From Marinicella sp. (lineage in GTDB: Bacteria; Pseudomonadota; Gammaproteobacteria; Xanthomonadales; Marinicellaceae): 64,000 nucleotides of DNA. The notes below the pieces were generated by a model. That model was given only the letters and a program-made list of their open reading frames with translations, was not told the origin of the DNA and searched no databases. A program made the translations under genes and the position numbers. The DNA lies in NCBI GenBank assembly GCA_965230295.1, contig OZ246001.1:1-64000 (forward strand). The letters run 5' to 3'. Positions 21,868 to 29,126 of the stretch are shown here, in pieces (the stretch's first letter is position 1; each line of letters begins with the position of its first letter).

Positions 21868-22251
21868 ATGAACAATCTACCAAAACCAACCAAAACAGAA
21901 CTGGCTATTCTAAACATCATGTGGATGATTTCGCCGGCAACGGTGCGTCAAATTCATGAAGAAATCATTAAAAATGGCAAAACCAGTTACACCACCACCC
22001 TGAAGATGTTACAAGTCATGCATCAAAAAGGCCTGGTCACCAGAAACAGTGAGCACAAAGCCCATATTTACGAACCCACTTTGAGCAAGAAAGAAACCCA
22101 AAATCAAATGTTGGACGATCTTAAGAATCGCCTGTTTGGAGGTTCAATCAGCTCTTTGGTGCTACAAGCACTGGGTACCACAGACACCACCAAACAGTCA
22201 GAACTTGATGAAATCAAAGCACTGCTGGAAAAAGTTGAGAACAACCAATAA
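21868..22251 (+). CDS. BlaI/MecI/CopY family repressor
   Basis: PTKTELAILNIMW..ATVRQIH..YTTTLKMLQVM..KGLV..LFGGS. Confidence 0.93.
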   Translation: MNNLPKPTKTELAILNIMWMISPATVRQIHEEIIKNGKTSYTTTLKMLQVMHQKGLVTRNSEHKAHIYEPTLSKKETQNQMLDDLKNRLFGGSISSLVLQALGTTDTTKQSELDEIKALLEKVENNQ

Positions 22252-22261
22252 CTAAAAATTT

Positions 22262-24094
22262 ATGCTCGCATCAGAGACACAATTGCTTATTTCATCTATT
22301 GGATGGGCACTGATCCACTTCTTGTGGCAAGGGACATTGATAACCTTTGCTTATTGGATCATCACCAGAAACATGCAATCAGTGCATGCCAAATACTGGA
22401 CAGGCATGGCCATGGTGGTGGTCAGTCTACTGGTTCCCATTATCAACATAAGCACTGCCAACTCCACCTCGGTTACCAATGAAGGGTTGACCCACCTATC
22501 CACCGCTGTCATCTCACATCAACAGATTGGGGTTGATGGATTGATTCAATACTTGATTAATGCCAGTTTGCCTTATGTGGTCATGGTGTGGGCGTTTACT
22601 GTATTATTCCTGAGCTTTCGCCTCATCCGTTCATGGGTTCAATTGGCAGCCATTAAACATGACTGTGATCCAAGAACCTCCAGCCAGCTGAAGCAATACA
22701 TCAAAAACATAGCAATCAAGTTGGATTTACCCACCATCCCGATGCTTAAAATCTCTAGACAGGTGATGATTCCAGCTGCTTACGGCTTGTTTAAACCCAC
22801 CATTTTATTGCCTTTGAGTTTGATCAACCAAATCCCCAAGGAACAATTAGAAGCCATCATTAAACATGAATTGTGCCATTTAAAACGCAATGATTTTGTC
22901 CACAACATCATTCAGTTATGTGCCGATATTCTGTTGTTCTTCCACCCTGGAATCAGGTGGATGAACAATGACATCAGGCATATAAGAGAGCAATGTTGCG
23001 ACCAAATGGTGTTGTCACATGACACTGAAAAACTGACTTATGCAAAAGCCTTAACCAACATTGCGGCGTTTTCTAATGGCATGAATATTAAACCCAGTAT
23101 ACAACTGGGCATCAACGATGGCATGTTACTGAACAGGGTCAAGTTTTTATTACAAAATAATTCCAGCCAATCATCATTAATGATATTCATACCATTTTTG
23201 ATGTTGATCATGTTTATGATCGTTATGCTACAACCAGCCAACAATGAGTTTGACGAACGATTGGCATCACAAAACAGTTCAATCAACAACACTGCCTGGC
23301 CAGCCGAAAAAAGTGAGCCGCCTGCCATTCAACAAAAACGCATGAGCAACCGGTCTTTTTACCCCAGATTTGACACACCGCCAGCACCAGATTCCATTTC
23401 AAATACCCTAAGGGAATCAGTTGAATCTGAACAATTCATCAGTTTTGAGACTGATCAGGCTGTACCAGACAGGGAAGCTGAGTCTGTGCCTTTCCAGTCC
23501 CTCGACAGGAACAGTTTGCTCAATGACATTAAGTTAGACATTCAGCTACCCACAACCAATTTATCAGACGCAGAAATATTTCCAACAGAACATAGCTCAA
23601 ACCCAGATTTGATTCAGGAGATTGATGCCAACCTCACAGCCGCCTCGCCATTGAATGTGGCAGTTGTTGAACCGACTGATGACAACCTTCTGAACTCGAC
23701 TGCGTTGACCACCAGCACTTCTGAATTATCATCTTTCGATAACAAGGACATCATTAAACCCGAATTCAAGCGTTATGTGGCACCCAAATACCCACAGTAT
23801 TTTTGGTATAACCAAATTGAACAAGAAGTCATTGCAACATTTAAAATTCAACCCAATGGCCGTGCTTATGACATCAATCTGACTTCTCAAATTAATAATT
23901 TTGTTGCCTTTGAACAAGAAGTAGAAAAGGCCATAAAACGATGGAAATTTGATACCAGTTCATTGAACAACAGCACCTTACAAAGGACGTACCAACAGAT
24001 ATTCAGTTTTGTTATTTCTGATGAAATAATTAAAAACTGTGAGCAAAAAACCACGGGTACCAGACTCAGCAAACCCATGCCTTGTAATAAATAA
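22262..24094 (+). CDS. M56 (BlaR1/MecR1-type) metallopeptidase with C-terminal TonB-like domain
   Basis: WALIHFLWQG, HELCHLKRND, FFHP..W, REQCCD; C-terminal PKYP..FEQEVEKAIKRWKF. Confidence 0.9.
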   Translation: MLASETQLLISSIGWALIHFLWQGTLITFAYWIITRNMQSVHAKYWTGMAMVVVSLLVPIINISTANSTSVTNEGLTHLSTAVISHQQIGVDGLIQYLINASLPYVVMVWAFTVLFLSFRLIRSWVQLAAIKHDCDPRTSSQLKQYIKNIAIKLDLPTIPMLKISRQVMIPAAYGLFKPTILLPLSLINQIPKEQLEAIIKHELCHLKRNDFVHNIIQLCADILLFFHPGIRWMNNDIRHIREQCCDQMVLSHDTEKLTYAKALTNIAAFSNGMNIKPSIQLGINDGMLLNRVKFLLQNNSSQSSLMIFIPFLMLIMFMIVMLQPANNEFDERLASQNSSINNTAWPAEKSEPPAIQQKRMSNRSFYPRFDTPPAPDSISNTLRESVESEQFISFETDQAVPDREAESVPFQSLDRNSLLNDIKLDIQLPTTNLSDAEIFPTEHSSNPDLIQEIDANLTAASPLNVAVVEPTDDNLLNSTALTTSTSELSSFDNKDIIKPEFKRYVAPKYPQYFWYNQIEQEVIATFKIQPNGRAYDINLTSQINNFVAFEQEVEKAIKRWKFDTSSLNNSTLQRTYQQIFSFVISDEIIKNCEQKTTGTRLSKPMPCNK

Positions 24095-25051: not shown

Positions 25052-25142
25052 GGAGAGATGGCAGAGCGGTTGAATGCACTGGTCTTGAAAACCAGCATAC
25101 GTTAATAGCGTATCTAGGGTTCGAATCCCTATCTCTCCGCCA
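25052..25142 (+). tRNA. tRNA-Ser(TGA)
   Basis: GGAGAGATGGCAGAGCGGTTGAATGCACTGGTCTTGAAAACCAGCATACGTTAATAGCGTATCTAGGGTTCGAATCCCTATCTCTCCGCCA; long variable arm. Confidence 0.97.
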
Positions 25143-25206
25143 TTATTTGTATGTCATTCATGGCATAGAAATAATGAAAGATAGATCGATTCTAGAAGCC
25201 TCCCTC

Positions 25207-25305
25207 GGGTTCGAAAAAATTGTCAGGAACGATTTTTGACGCCGCAGGCGCCCACAGGGTGAAATGCAGGATGCATTTCATCAATCCCTATCTCTCCGCC
25301 ATTAT
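25207..25305 (+). pseudogene. Duplicated tRNA-Ser 3' end interrupted in the T-loop
   Basis: GGGTTCGAA-[67 bp]-AATCCCTATCTCTCCGCCATTAT; flanks identical to the real tRNA 3' end. Confidence 0.85.
25216..25282 (+). repeat. 67-bp four-hairpin element, copy 1
   Basis: AAAATTGT-CAGGA-ACGATTTTT / GACGCCGCAGGCG / CCCACAGGG / TGAAATGCAGGATGCATTTCA-TC. Confidence 0.85.
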
Positions 25306-25371
25306 CCTACTTATAATTCTTCAACTGGCACCAAAGAATGTCATGACTGTGTCATGAGCGGTTGAATGCAC

Positions 25372-25440
25372 GCCCTACTCTGTGTTTTAGCCAAGTCTTC
25401 TTTGGCTCACGCCAAAATCGACTTAACACAACACAGGGGC
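25372..25440. repeat. ~69-bp long-hairpin element (type A), copy 1
   Basis: GCCC..TGTGTT..AAGTC-TTC-TTTGGC-TCAC-GCCAAA-ATC-GACTT-AACACA..GGGC, inserted between the D-arm and anticodon stem. Confidence 0.75.
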
Positions 25441-25450
25441 TGGTCTTGAA

Positions 25451-25517
25451 AAATTTGTCTGGAACAAGTTTTAACGCCGAAGGCGCCCGTAGGGTTAAAG
25501 GCAGGAAGCCTTTGATT
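25451..25517 (+). repeat. 67-bp four-hairpin element, copy 2 (in the anticodon loop)
   Basis: AAATTTGT-CTGGA-ACAAGTTTT / AACGCCGAAGGCG / CCCGTAGGG / TTAAAGGCAGGAAGCCTTTGA-TT. Confidence 0.85.
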
Positions 25518-25555
25518 AAAACCAGCATACATTAATAGCGTATCTAGGGTTCGAA

Positions 25556-25622
25556 AAATTCTTCTGGAAAGAGTTTTGACGCCGCAGGCGTCCACAGGGG
25601 CAATGACAGGAAGTCATTGATC
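25556..25622 (+). repeat. 67-bp four-hairpin element, copy 3 (in the T-loop)
   Basis: AAATTCTT-CTGGA-AAGAGTTTT / GACGCCGCAGGCG / TCCACAGGG / GCAATGACAGGAAGTCATTGA-TC. Confidence 0.85.
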
Positions 25623-25746
25623 GTTCCAACAACTGTTCTAAATTACGACTGAATTTGTCTTGTTCGTTTTTTTCTGATTTACTTTTTTCATTGCTTGCTC
25701 ATATTTTTTGAAGTTTACAATGAGCCTAAACCTTTCCTTCTCTTAG

Positions 25747-25872
25747 CAAATCAGTCTAATTGGTCCACATGGTGCTGACAGGGTACATTTGAAAATTATT
25801 AAATTTTCAGACTTTATTAGGGATCCTGATAGTAATCTAATTGAGCTATCTAATTACAAACAAACAAAATGA
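25747..25872 (+). pseudogene. C-terminal remnant of a VOC/glyoxalase-family gene
   Basis: Frame reads ...FIRDPDSNLIELSNYKQTK*, matching the VOC C-terminal (Y/F)xRDPDGNLIEL motif; in-frame TAG at 25744 upstream. Confidence 0.55.
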
Positions 25873-26095
25873 CTCTCGAAGTGATGCCAGATAACTTTGT
25901 AATGGGTTTCCTGGCATCCTTTATTACCAATTTCTCACCAACTTCAACCGAAAGCTTTTGCCCTATTTATTGATTGGTTCAATTATAAGCGGCCATCAAT
26001 TCAGTTAAATTCATGACCTTTGACACAAGTTATTATTTATAATTAATTATATTCTTCATCCTGAAGTAATGCGCGAATTCCAAATTTTTTAGGTT

Positions 26096-26374
26096 ATGGT
26101 CACAAAGAAATCGACGACTCTTTTATGTTTAGTGATATTTTTCTACACTGGATTGCATGAGAAGAATAATCTGATAACTCAGGATATATCGAGTCATGAT
26201 AACTCCTACTCCATAAGCCTTGATCTTGACAGCGATGATTCGGACATTTGCCAGTTTGATGTAAAAGCTCAATCTACATTTGACAATAGTTGCAACCAAT
26301 TTCAAACATGGGTTCCCAGCCACAAACATGACTTCGGCTTCTTCACGCCGATGCGAGCCCCTCCTGTTGCATAG
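26096..26374 (+). CDS. Putative RAPP-type translation-arrest leader peptide
   Basis: N-terminal basic plus hydrophobic export-like segment, acidic middle with scattered His/Cys, ends MRAPPVA*. Confidence 0.65.
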   Translation: MVTKKSTTLLCLVIFFYTGLHEKNNLITQDISSHDNSYSISLDLDSDDSDICQFDVKAQSTFDNSCNQFQTWVPSHKHDFGFFTPMRAPPVA

Positions 26375-26432
26375 GCAACACACTTAAACAAAGTTTCACT
26401 TTTACTAAACATAACTTTTTGAGGAGGTTTTC

Positions 26433-26774
26433 ATGATCGTTTCTTCATGTTTCAACCATGTGAATAAGGAATTCATTCCTGAGCACTTTATTCTTATAGC
26501 CTGTAATTATTTTAAAAAATTATACCATTTAATAAATTCAATAAATGGCCGCTTCGGTCAAGTCACATCTGAATGTCATGGCTCTGATTGCACCAGTTGT
26601 CACTTGTCAATCAGATGTCCTCAAAAACGACACATTGATATTTATCAGTTAACTCCAGACTGTATGACAGCCTTAATAAACCCTTTAGAAAAAGCAGCAA
26701 CGCTTTTGTCCAAATTGGCATTGAAAACAAGTACCAGGTATCGAAGTTTTCAATCAGGAGAAATTGGACAATGA
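26433..26774 (+). CDS. Small Cys/His-rich hypothetical protein (Cx4Cx2Cx5C motif)
   Basis: Perfect RBS GAGGAGG 5 nt before ATG; CHGSDCTSCHLSIRC. Confidence 0.6.
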   Translation: MIVSSCFNHVNKEFIPEHFILIACNYFKKLYHLINSINGRFGQVTSECHGSDCTSCHLSIRCPQKRHIDIYQLTPDCMTALINPLEKAATLLSKLALKTSTRYRSFQSGEIGQ

Positions 26775-26983
26775 AAAAAGAAATGAATGAAATTAATCAA
26801 TTATTGCTGCTATTTGTCATTTTAATTTTTTTGTTTTTAGCTGCTGTCTCATACAGTTTGTACCAGACAACTGTGGAATTAAATCAACTCAAAACAAGAG
26901 TAAAACTCAATGAACCACAAATCAAAATTGTTAGCAAACCCACTTTATCTAGCCAACCATTACATTTACAAAATAATAAATAA
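26771..26983 (+). CDS. Small single-TM hypothetical protein
   Basis: ATGA overlap with the previous stop, AGGAG RBS, hydrophobic LLLLFVILIFLFLAAV followed by a short helical segment. Confidence 0.6.
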   Translation: MKKEMNEINQLLLLFVILIFLFLAAVSYSLYQTTVELNQLKTRVKLNEPQIKIVSKPTLSSQPLHLQNNK

Positions 26984-27041
26984 TTCAAGCTTTAGCCATC
27001 TTCAAATTTATCCAAAGACTTGAATTCGATAGGAGAATAGT

Positions 27042-27332
27042 ATGCTCGATCAACTACACACATTTACAGTACCAAACGCCTTTGTCGTATTTCTATTTAT
27101 TTTACTTTTCACGGCCCATGTATGCCTTTTCGTAGATATTTCCAGGTTCCAGAAAAACCCTTCAAGCAGGTTGAATTTTGTAATCTCTGGTTTTTTATCA
27201 GCATTCATTACAACATATTCCTTTTATTCAATAAGGTTGCCTTCAATCACACAAAAGTTATTCCTGATAGGTGCAATAGGGGTTATTTCAGCAACAGCAT
27301 TTACATTGACACTACAAAAATTATTTAAATAA
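27042..27332 (+). CDS. Small three-TM hypothetical membrane protein
   Basis: AGGAG RBS; three hydrophobic stretches. Confidence 0.6.
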   Translation: MLDQLHTFTVPNAFVVFLFILLFTAHVCLFVDISRFQKNPSSRLNFVISGFLSAFITTYSFYSIRLPSITQKLFLIGAIGVISATAFTLTLQKLFK

Positions 27333-27570
27333 GACATTACAGAGCTAAAGTATTTAGGGCGAGTCGAAAAAAGTCACAAAGGGGAGTTAATAATAGATGA
27401 TTACAGGTGCCTTAAGTGGCTGTCTTCGCCCTTATATGGATATGGCCAAACCTTAAAATCATAATTGCCCTTATCGAACTGACTGAATGAAAGTAATTAG
27501 TCAAACAATCCACCACCCATTTGAGGCAACCATTACTTTCTCCATATAGATTGGAAAAACATATTTGAGC

Positions 27571-27640
27571 GGATCGGGCAGAAACGTAGTCAAGGCTTCT
27601 TTGGCCACACCAAAATCGCCATGACGCTTATTCTCGATCC
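27571..27640. repeat. ~70-bp long-hairpin element (type A), copy 2
   Basis: GGATCG..CAAGGC-TTC-TTTGG-CCACA-CCAAA-ATC-GCCATGAC..CGATCC shares its core with 25372-25440. Confidence 0.65.
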
Positions 27641-27911
27641 CGAACTGGTGATGAGTGTCGGTTAATTCTTAAACTAAATCAAAATCACTTATGGCGGTTT
27701 TAATGCTACTTATCCCTTTAAATGAACTCTGCTGCTGTGTCATAACCTTCAAATAAGTCTGTCAGAATCAACTGAACTGTAAGATTTTGGCTCATTTATT
27801 AATATCGTCATTAAATCTTTATGTTTTATTCACCCTCCCCTTATATAAAGCCTATAAACCAGGCATCTCATGATGCTAAAATAGCTGCTTTTTTGCTGAT
27901 GGAACATTGCT

Positions 27912-29126
27912 TTGGACCTGAATGAACTCTTAATTGATCAACCACACCAATTCATCACCCATGACGGTGTTGAGTTTTTATTGTTAGGCACCGCCCATGT
28001 CTCACAAAAAAGTGCTGACGTGGTTAAATCACTGATCGAGACCAAAGAATTTGATACGGTTGCCATAGAATTGGATGAAATCAGGTATCAGGCGATAACT
28101 GATGAAAATCGTTATAAGAATATGGACTTGATCAGCATCATCAAAAACAAGCAAACTGGTTTAATTGCAACCAACTTGGCAATGAGCGCCTACCAAAACA
28201 GACTCGCCGAACAATTAGGTGTTGAACCTGGTGCTGAAATGAAACAAGCCATTAAATCTGTCAATGAAATGGGTTTGGATTTATGGAAGATTGATCGCAG
28301 TGTTGGCATCACCATGAAACGTACTTGGCGATCATTAAAATTCATTGAAAAAATTAATTTGATTTTCGGCTTTGGTGGTTTTTTTGAAAAAGAAGAAATC
28401 AGTGAAAAAGAAATCGAAAAACTAAAATCTGGTGACATGTTAGAAAGCACATTCAATGAATTTTCTGAAAATTCAGAATCCTTGTATAAATCATTGATAG
28501 ATGAAAGGGATCAATTCATGGCAGCCCGACTACAGCAAGCCATCACAAAGCCAACCGTCGGAAACAAACATGAAACTGAGAAAGTTTTGGTGGTCATTGG
28601 AGCCGGGCACTTAAAAGGCTTATCGGGTTATTTACAAAAACCCATGGACACCCACCAAACCATTAATAACCTCAACACCCTGCCCCCAAAATCCAATTGG
28701 ATCAAAGTACTTCCTTGGTTGATTACAATAATCATTCTAACCGGGTTTGCCTGGGGCTTTGCAAAAAACAATGACTTGGGCTTGGATTTGATCAAAACCT
28801 GGGTTTTGTACAATGGCGTTCTTTCAGGCATTGGAGCCGCCATCGCTGGAGCACATCCTGTTACCATTTTATCGGCTGTTGTGGCTGCGCCCTTCACCTC
28901 ATTGAACCCGACCATCGCAGCCGGCATGGTTGCTGCATTGGTTGAAACCATGATCAGAAAACCTAAAATACATAATTTTGAATCACTACAGAAAGATGCC
29001 ATGCACCTCAAAGGGTGGTGGAAGAACCCGGTAACTCGTGTACTCCTGGTCTTTGTTTTGACCAACATCGGTTCAGCGATTGCCACCTGGGTTTCTGGAT
29101 TCAAAATTTTCAACCAATTGATCTGA
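27912..29126 (+). CDS. TraB/PrgY (TraB/GumN) family membrane protein
   Basis: LLGTAHVS, VAIELD..R, PGAEM, LIDERDQFMA, VIGAGH, C-terminal TMs. Confidence 0.92.
   Translation: MDLNELLIDQPHQFITHDGVEFLLLGTAHVSQKSADVVKSLIETKEFDTVAIELDEIRYQAITDENRYKNMDLISIIKNKQTGLIATNLAMSAYQNRLAEQLGVEPGAEMKQAIKSVNEMGLDLWKIDRSVGITMKRTWRSLKFIEKINLIFGFGGFFEKEEISEKEIEKLKSGDMLESTFNEFSENSESLYKSLIDERDQFMAARLQQAITKPTVGNKHETEKVLVVIGAGHLKGLSGYLQKPMDTHQTINNLNTLPPKSNWIKVLPWLITIIILTGFAWGFAKNNDLGLDLIKTWVLYNGVLSGIGAAIAGAHPVTILSAVVAAPFTSLNPTIAAGMVAALVETMIRKPKIHNFESLQKDAMHLKGWWKNPVTRVLLVFVLTNIGSAIATWVSGFKIFNQLI

Follow-up and report, generated by a model that had tools for sequence, protein, structure and literature searches.

A Marinicella-restricted leader ORF ending in R-A-P-P, probably a new member of the RAPP arrest-leader class, and its conserved membrane-gene partner

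A 64,000-nucleotide (nt) stretch of DNA from Marinicella sp. (contig OZ246001.1, positions 1 to 64,000; hereafter the window) carries on its plus strand a short open reading frame (ORF), here called the leader (26096–26374; 92 amino acids (aa) plus stop), which begins with ATG at 26096 and ends with the codons CGA GCC CCT CCT GTT GCA TAG, i.e. R-A-P-P-V-A-stop. The leader N-terminus (MVTKKSTTLLCLVIFFYTGL) has basic residues first and a hydrophobic run after them, and its codons (MVTKKSTTLLCLVIFFYTGLH, 26096–26158, plus strand) are presumed, from the leader alignment, to encode a Sec signal or signal anchor. The R-A-P-P codons (CGA GCC CCT CCT, 26354–26365, plus strand) are the presumed stall site and the segment proposed to pair with downstream initiation regions. 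Further along the same strand lie an ORF of 113 aa (26433–26774), an ORF of 70 aa (26771–26983), and a conserved gene for a 96-aa, three-helix membrane protein (27042–27332), which is likely the regulated gene. The original prediction, made from the window alone, had singled out the R-A-P-P ending, the N-terminus, and the exact complementarity between the two proline codons (CCTCCT, 26360–26365) and the AGGAGG at 26422–26427 (plus strand), which forms the Shine-Dalgarno (SD) motif in front of the ORF at 26433; all three features are present where it had placed them.

With the leader as a single query, a word search returned no homologues; the relatives emerged from a six-frame genome search and from profiles. 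In the six-frame search, which covered 41 related genomes, the leader matched ORFs of its own size weakly but over the full length, and all of these end in RAPP or RGPP. A match in Ignavibacteriae (L014), which lies inside a 455-aa ORF, was judged unrelated, and the leader has no Pfam match at E ≤ 0.1. Its relatives, 18–24% identical to it in an alignment of seven leaders, belong to Marinicella (including M. gelatinilytica, M. litoralis, M. sediminis, and metagenome-assembled genomes). The R[AG]PP ending is present in all seven Marinicella genome loci, in both metagenome loci, and in all 13 metagenome protein clusters, several of which represent the same lineages as the genome loci; RAPP is found in most relatives and RGPP in the G014 type. 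Conservation of RAPP among homologous leaders, which the original prediction had proposed to look for, is borne out, no homologue without the motif having been found. In the genome loci the leaders are ORFs of 92–97 aa ending in [KQ]-S-x-R-[AG]-P-P-x-x-stop, with six residues after the two prolines in one lineage.

Only four columns of the seven-leader alignment are invariant: L10, which lies in the hydrophobic segment, R87, P89, and P90, the last three being the sole invariant residues in the mature part. All seven start with one or more basic residues (K/N-K) followed by 13–15 hydrophobic residues, as read by eye from the alignment. The mature part also holds several histidines and a semi-conserved acidic DD-x-[DE]-L-C segment, whose cysteine, the only semi-conserved one, lies about 35 residues before RAPP and is replaced by tyrosine in one relative (G002). 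Of the 17,412 ORFs that reach 50 aa in the six frames of the 4.0-Mb genome, only three carry R[AG]PP within their last 10 residues. Judged by this conservation, the leader ORF is a real, conserved gene. A fast-evolving body combined with an invariant R-x-P-P matches what has been reported for arrest peptides of the RAPP type, and the comparison supports the view that the leader carries the full sequence signature of an arrest leader of this type.

By the same kind of comparison, the conserved partner of the leader is the membrane gene at 27042, and not the ORF at 26433. Homologues of the membrane gene (38–64% identical, 96–106 aa) form the next conserved gene after the leader in every related locus, and the leader always lies upstream of them on the same strand. 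Profiles for the leader (built from the seven leaders) and for the membrane gene, when scanned against 44 genomes of the family, match the identical seven genomes, all of one genus, and the remaining 37 genomes lack both. Among 401 genomes sampled from the order (394 other) and 401 from the class (399 other), no further module was found, bar one marginal class-level match (G662, E 7.9e-4) within a 299-aa ORF. This count refers to genome loci; 12 membrane-protein relatives known solely from metagenomes (P0016–P0032) stand outside it. On this distribution, the leader and the membrane gene form a module of two genes that only some Marinicella species possess.

The membrane-protein family is very small (of 1.84 billion representatives searched, 19 clusters match at E ≤ 0.001) and has the motif T-x-H-[IV]-C-L-F-x-D-x-S-x-x-Q-K-x-P, with H26 and L29 more than 90% conserved. 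AlphaFold2 predicts three helices with a mean predicted local distance difference test (pLDDT) score of 82.8 in a second model (pLDDT 61 in the first). The protein has no Pfam or NCBIfam match; a sequence profile search of the PDB returned nothing below E 0.39, Foldseek with the model against the PDB returned nothing at E ≤ 0.001, the ESM Atlas gave only matches below 0.9, all to unnamed clusters, and the only name attached to the clusters was “hypothetical protein”. The claim that the downstream genes are not the sec/yidC or TonB-receptor targets of other such leaders agrees with these searches, in which no named family was matched.

From the leader stop to the membrane-gene start there are 136–291 nt in the relatives, with stops in all three frames, and 667 nt in the window, where the gap is filled by the 113-aa and 70-aa ORFs, both with good ribosome-binding sites. 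The 113-aa ORF (26433–26774) has a strong SD five bases before its ATG, and its stop overlaps the next start (ATGA). It is an orphan, and its reality as a gene is uncertain: it has no Pfam or NCBIfam match, no credible homologue in the 43 other genomes of the family, and no match but itself in a search of 5.8 billion proteins. Its codon score (0.055) is close to those of the leader (0.018) and of the clearly real membrane gene (−0.03), long genes scoring 0.265 ± 0.084, so codon usage does not decide the matter. It contains HGSDCTSC, which fits the pattern H-x3-C-x2-C that we take to be that of zinc-binding anti-sigma factors, without a Pfam match. The 70-aa ORF (26771–26983) has one hydrophobic segment, matches no Pfam family at a meaningful score, and occurs in no other version of the locus than that of this genome. 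When the two ORFs were compared with the relatives' spacers by tblastn, only matches with E > 0.6 were obtained.

The spacers of the relatives (L009, L011, L012, L021, L022, and L006) share two elements: a U/C-rich element of about 17 nt, roughly TTTCTTAAAACGATTCT, located about 6–22 nt after the leader stop (spacer alignment columns 69–90), and a hairpin, GGGTCAT...ATGACCC, with one two-sided change, located 25–47 nt before the membrane-gene start (columns 316–336). No intrinsic terminator was found in the spacers of two relatives, and Rfam returned nothing between leader and membrane gene. The relatives' spacers also resemble decayed coding sequence, e.g. K-K-F-L-K-T-I-L in the −1 frame just past the leader stop.

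The minimum-energy fold of 26330–26450 (dG −28.9 kcal/mol, z = −2.89, with one of 200 shuffles as good) contains the helix between the proline codons and the SD of ORF 26433, as well as two inner hairpins that the original prediction had correctly drawn, UGUUGC-AUAG-GCAACA across the leader stop codon (26365–26380, plus strand) and AAAGUU...AACUUU between the leader stop and the next SD (26390–26418, plus strand). In a 407-nt partition-function fold, the probability that the SD of ORF 26433 pairs with the Pro-Pro region is 0.46. The window is the sole locus with CCU CCU as its Pro-Pro codons. We compared this pairing with a null in which the amino acids were held fixed and synonymous codons varied over the R-A-P-P region: 359 of 2000 recodings pair with the initiation region of ORF 26433 at least as well (204 of 1000 with a wider segment), and the exact CCTCCT:AGGAGG match is not beyond chance.

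The complementarity that is conserved, in the window and in most relatives, is that of the R-A-P-P codons with the SD and the AUG-CUC of the membrane gene. The membrane-gene initiation region (27028–27048, plus strand) comprises the SD AGGAG (27031–27035) and the AUG (27042–27044). In the window, 26354–26358 pairs with 27044–27048 and 26361–26368 with 27028–27035, giving 13 pairs with dG −15.4, the best of 896 windows scanned. RNAalifold applied to seven relatives pairs GAGCA, from the Arg-Ala codons, with UGCUC, from the membrane-gene AUG-CUC, and CUCC, from the Pro-Pro codons, with GGAG of the SD. In this two-part helix 59 of 63 cells are paired, versus 27–54% when the partner is slid by 1–3 columns. 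Full-length folds give probabilities for pairing of the membrane-gene SD with the Pro-Pro region of 1.00 (G014), 1.00 (G023), 0.99 (L022), 0.97 (G002), and 0.70 (G005). The synonymous-recoding null at nine loci gives p = 0.033, 0.022, 0.053, 0.40, 0.011, 0.27, 0.071, 0.045, and 0.005; in the window, 65 of 2000 recodings pair with the membrane-gene initiation region as well as the native codons do. The null means are −7 to −11 kcal/mol, values so low that Ala-Pro-Pro codons must be regarded as inherently complementary to SD sequences.

The leader probably belongs, as a new member, to the stalling switches already known and does not represent a new kind of switch, the stalling itself being predicted. 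Fujiwara et al. (EMBO J 2025) report RAPP or RGPP near the C-terminus of small exported proteins encoded upstream of functionally diverse genes, across phyla, and describe stalling in vitro for seven of seven Streptomyces lividans leaders and for CruR (PMC12992588). Alongside the conservation, co-inheritance, and complementarity observed here, we predict stalling, export, release by force, and a sign of regulation as follows. Like ApdA/ApdP, CruR, and SecM, the leader would stall its own ribosome at its C-terminal R-A-P-P, with the P site occupied by the first proline codon (26360–26362) and the A site by the second, by analogy with the toeprint reported for CruR (PMC12992588). In free mRNA the R-A-P-P codons (CGA GCN CCU CC) would mask downstream initiation regions; a parked ribosome would hold the masking segment inside itself and downstream translation would be allowed; the pull on the chain during export of the leader via Sec would end the stall, whereupon the mask would form again and the module be turned off, as in the SecM paradigm described in PMC10987492. 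The Asp/His/Cys-rich periplasmic part of the leader might modulate release, a speculative step suggested by the czcCBA neighbourhood in some relatives. That the leader is an arrest leader controlling downstream genes we consider likely. The best explanation of the whole, an exported R-A-P-P arrest leader that regulates the membrane gene through masking and unmasking of its initiation region, we hold with even confidence for and against, and masking of that region by the stall codons is put forward, as a mechanism, tentatively.

Several observations weigh against masking by the stall codons. In three of eight relatives (G015, G009, and L021) full-length folds give a probability of about 0 for pairing of the Pro-Pro region with the SD, the Pro-Pro codons being CCA CCC in G015 and G009. 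In the window itself, the full-length fold pairs the membrane-gene SD elsewhere (probability with the Pro-Pro region, 0.02), and the pairing would have to span 667 nt across two ORFs. The covariation between the two strands that the original prediction had proposed to look for is absent, with compensatory change in none of the nine pairs of the helix, whose 3′ side is invariant. The recoding test is weak when applied to a wider segment (two of nine loci below 0.05), and the combined recoding p of 9e-6 is overstated, because the loci are kin and their synonymous sites far from saturated. Other conserved leader codons are as uniform as the first proline codon (CCT in 7 of 9): CTG, for instance, is kept in 7 of 9, as is GTC in 7 of 8. 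Leader codons 7–12, F-N-V-F-L-C (TTT AAT GTT TTC CTG TG), which complement the membrane-gene SD (CACAGGAGATTAAT type) in L009, L021, L022, L010, and L006, rival the RAPP codons in SD complementarity and form the best duplex in five of nine loci.

Masking of the stall site in silico likewise does little to free either SD. A 31-nt footprint brings the probability that the membrane-gene SD is unpaired to 0.15–0.29 in four of eight relatives and leaves it unchanged in the rest. For ORF 26433, masking 26350–26375 or 26346–26376 lowers the probability of an unpaired SD from 0.15 to 0.04 or 0.03, against the opening that the original prediction implied, and in a wider context masking moves it from 0.23 to 0.33. 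The SD stays paired because GGCUUCUUCA at 26336–26345 replaces the Pro-Pro segment; a queued second ribosome would cover this alternative segment.

The poor release of the SD by masking is what would be expected if the output were transcriptional, of the CruR/TnaC type, with the ribosome stalled at RAPP blocking Rho-dependent termination or polarity in the spacer and no ribosome-binding site being unmasked. CruR (Bp2923, DUF2946) of Bordetella pertussis is an exported upstream ORF that is required for expression of the next gene and acts through Rho termination, across a 162-bp intergenic region (PMC9426467). The relatives' spacers of 136–291 nt, with their stops in all frames, suit such a route, as does the U/C-rich element, whose beginning about 6 nt past the leader stop coincides with the leading edge of a stalled ribosome. 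However, the spacers are neither C-rich nor G-poor (C/G 1.02–1.45; (C−G)/78 of 0.05–0.21 in the best 78-nt window), the window's spacer holds two ORFs with good ribosome-binding sites that, if translated, would leave little naked RNA for Rho, and the complementarity of the RAPP codons to the membrane-gene initiation region would be left unexplained. We regard this route as unlikely, though the most serious of the alternatives.

A less probable alternative is that the membrane protein has in the leader an ordinary partner, periplasmic or membrane-anchored, in which R[AG]PP-x-x is kept for a non-regulatory reason such as a C-terminal recognition motif or a targeting pause, the RNA complementarity following as a by-product from the C-richness of Pro/Ala codons and the G-richness of the SD. 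The DD-x-[DE]-L-C segment and the histidines suggest a folded or ligand-binding part, and both the low recoding-null means and the lack of covariation fit a by-product. On the other side, a body that evolves as fast as this one around an R-x-P-P that alone is invariant has the pattern of an arrest peptide, and outside such leaders proteomes are described as strongly avoiding RAPP/RGPP (PMC12992588). That the main output is ORF 26433 with the ORFs coupled to it, as the original prediction held, is very improbable: although its AGGAGG has a perfect 6-nt complement at a distance of 57 nt, joined to it in the minimum-energy fold, is paired with it at close to half occupancy in the longer fold, faces CCU CCU in this locus alone, and belongs to a strong SD whose ORF overlaps the next start with its stop, the pairing falls within what proline codons give by chance, the SD is still paired after stall-site masking, no homologue exists in the genomes and proteins searched, and none of the eight related loci carries the ORF while all keep the leader.

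The preferred reading, an arrest leader acting on the membrane gene, can be set against the surroundings of the module. In M. gelatinilytica (G014; L036, 3219–11683) the gene order is pyrC, a MerR/CadR-type regulator, an IhpA/CzcC-like gene, an IhpB/CzcB-like gene, a CusA/CzcA-family pump, the leader, and the membrane gene. In G002 (L037, 3242–6084) what comes after pyrC is the remainder of a CusA/CzcA-type pump, a C-terminal piece of 112 aa, and then the module, and in G009 the module directly adjoins pyrC; the remaining loci, the window included, have unrelated neighbours. With a pump and regulator in one species, a pump remnant in another, and unrelated genes at other loci, a link of the module to divalent-metal handling is possible but weak. 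In a more elaborate version of the mechanism, a two-part anti-initiation element (CGA-GCN-CCU-CC) would reach over 136–667 nt and grip the SD together with the AUG-CUC in a new family of three-helix membrane proteins bearing a His-x-Cys...Asp motif, and a divalent metal of the Zn/Cd type, bound to the Asp/His/Cys-rich periplasmic part of the leader, would modulate the stall. The module would then be to translation, in a czcCBA-linked setting, what CruR is as a copper sensor, and both its sensor domain and its output protein would be new; we consider this version quite improbable.

In the window a tRNA-Ser(UGA) lies upstream of the module (25052–25142), and the G+C content is 32–38% over about 25600–28400, a stretch that holds the whole module, versus 44% for the genome; this low-G+C stretch after the tRNA-Ser may be an acquired islet. 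A sub-threshold Rfam match to the sRNA sX4 (49 bits versus 70) overlaps the tRNA-Ser. On the plus strand, a consensus scan of 25100–27950 found neither a promoter upstream of the leader nor, at any position, a terminator, and its promoter-like matches sit inside ORFs (26142–26170 and 26950–26977). Upstream of the leader, at 26020–26043, there are a perfect TTGACA and a perfect TATAAT, which the scan did not call because they are only 12 nt apart. At 21868–24094 the window carries a BlaI-type repressor gene followed by a gene for a BlaR1/M56 peptidase of 610 aa, whose C-terminal domain is TonB_C.

Outside the window, the same genome holds a second candidate arrest leader, a 91-aa ORF on the minus strand (genome 3135623–3135898; L035, 2624–2899), which is among the three R[AG]PP ORFs of the six-frame count. 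It has a signal-like N-terminus, a CxxC (CEVC), and the ending IRGPPQFSFI-stop, and 112 nt separate it from a downstream ORF of 767 aa with the C-terminus FRLTF, which we take to be typical of a TonB-dependent receptor. Its layout is of the CruR type, yet it has no DUF2946 Pfam match.

If stalling is confirmed, a genus-restricted, unannotated leader family, with a sensor part without a known domain, would be added to the RAPP/RGPP arrest peptides. As the target belongs to a membrane family named by no database, the leader would also offer a first handle on the function of that family, the need for which would be signalled by export or by periplasmic conditions. The module may further serve as a test case for a general question, namely whether the C-rich codons that RAPP imposes provide a ready-made anti-Shine-Dalgarno.

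Among known leaders, TnaC of tnaA, which stalls near its own stop, ahead of a long untranslated spacer before the regulated gene, resembles what is predicted for the Marinicella leader; unlike the latter, it responds to tryptophan in the ribosomal tunnel, lacks a RAPP motif, and is no exported peptide. Closer are the RAPP/RGPP arrest peptides (ApdA, ApdP, the RQH family, and the S. lividans leaders), which are described as small proteins with an N-terminal localisation signal and a co-directional downstream gene, with R[AG]PP a few residues before the stop as the sole conserved feature and with a patchy, narrow distribution (PMC10987492; PMC12992588); the Marinicella leader shares these properties. 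It differs from them in its downstream gene, which falls outside sec/yidC and outside the metal, Dsb, and sigma-factor groups named in PMC12992588. The suggestion of the original prediction that input and output may both be new stands insofar as the leader has neither DUF2946 nor CxxC and the downstream partner is in no named family; it is weakened by the RAPP/RGPP leaders already published upstream of diverse non-sec genes (PMC12992588). A literature search for Marinicella together with arrest peptides found no paper, and the ORFs may figure in the supplementary tables of PMC12992588. What is new here is a leader family and an output protein family without named relatives, the arrest-peptide class itself having been published.

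CruR is similar in being proteobacterial and exported, with RAPP 2–3 residues from the C-terminus, a long spacer, and, for the Marinicella module, a possible metal link (PMC9426467; PMC12992588). Unlike DUF2946 proteins, which have a CxxC about 45 residues before RAPP, the Marinicella leaders lack CxxC, as the original prediction had said of the window's leader, and none of 12 leader-family members matches DUF2946 (Pfam PF11162) at E ≤ 10. The Marinicella target is not a TonB-dependent transporter or a copper gene but a 96–106-aa, three-helix protein without a family match, and where CruR acts through Rho termination, the Marinicella RNA suggests masking of an initiation region. Nor is the target SecA, SecDF, or YidC, by the Pfam, NCBIfam, PDB, and Foldseek searches, which sets the leader apart from the substrates that monitor Sec and YidC (SecM, VemP, and MifM). 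With SecM-secA of E. coli and the Alteromonas secDF2 leader (uDF_RQH), for which SD-masking stem-loops opened by stalled ribosomes are described (PMC10987492), the Marinicella leader would share an exported substrate and a stalled ribosome that opens SD-hiding RNA. In those systems the mask is a local stem-loop, whereas in Marinicella the stall codons would themselves be the complementary strand, with their partner 136–667 nt away.

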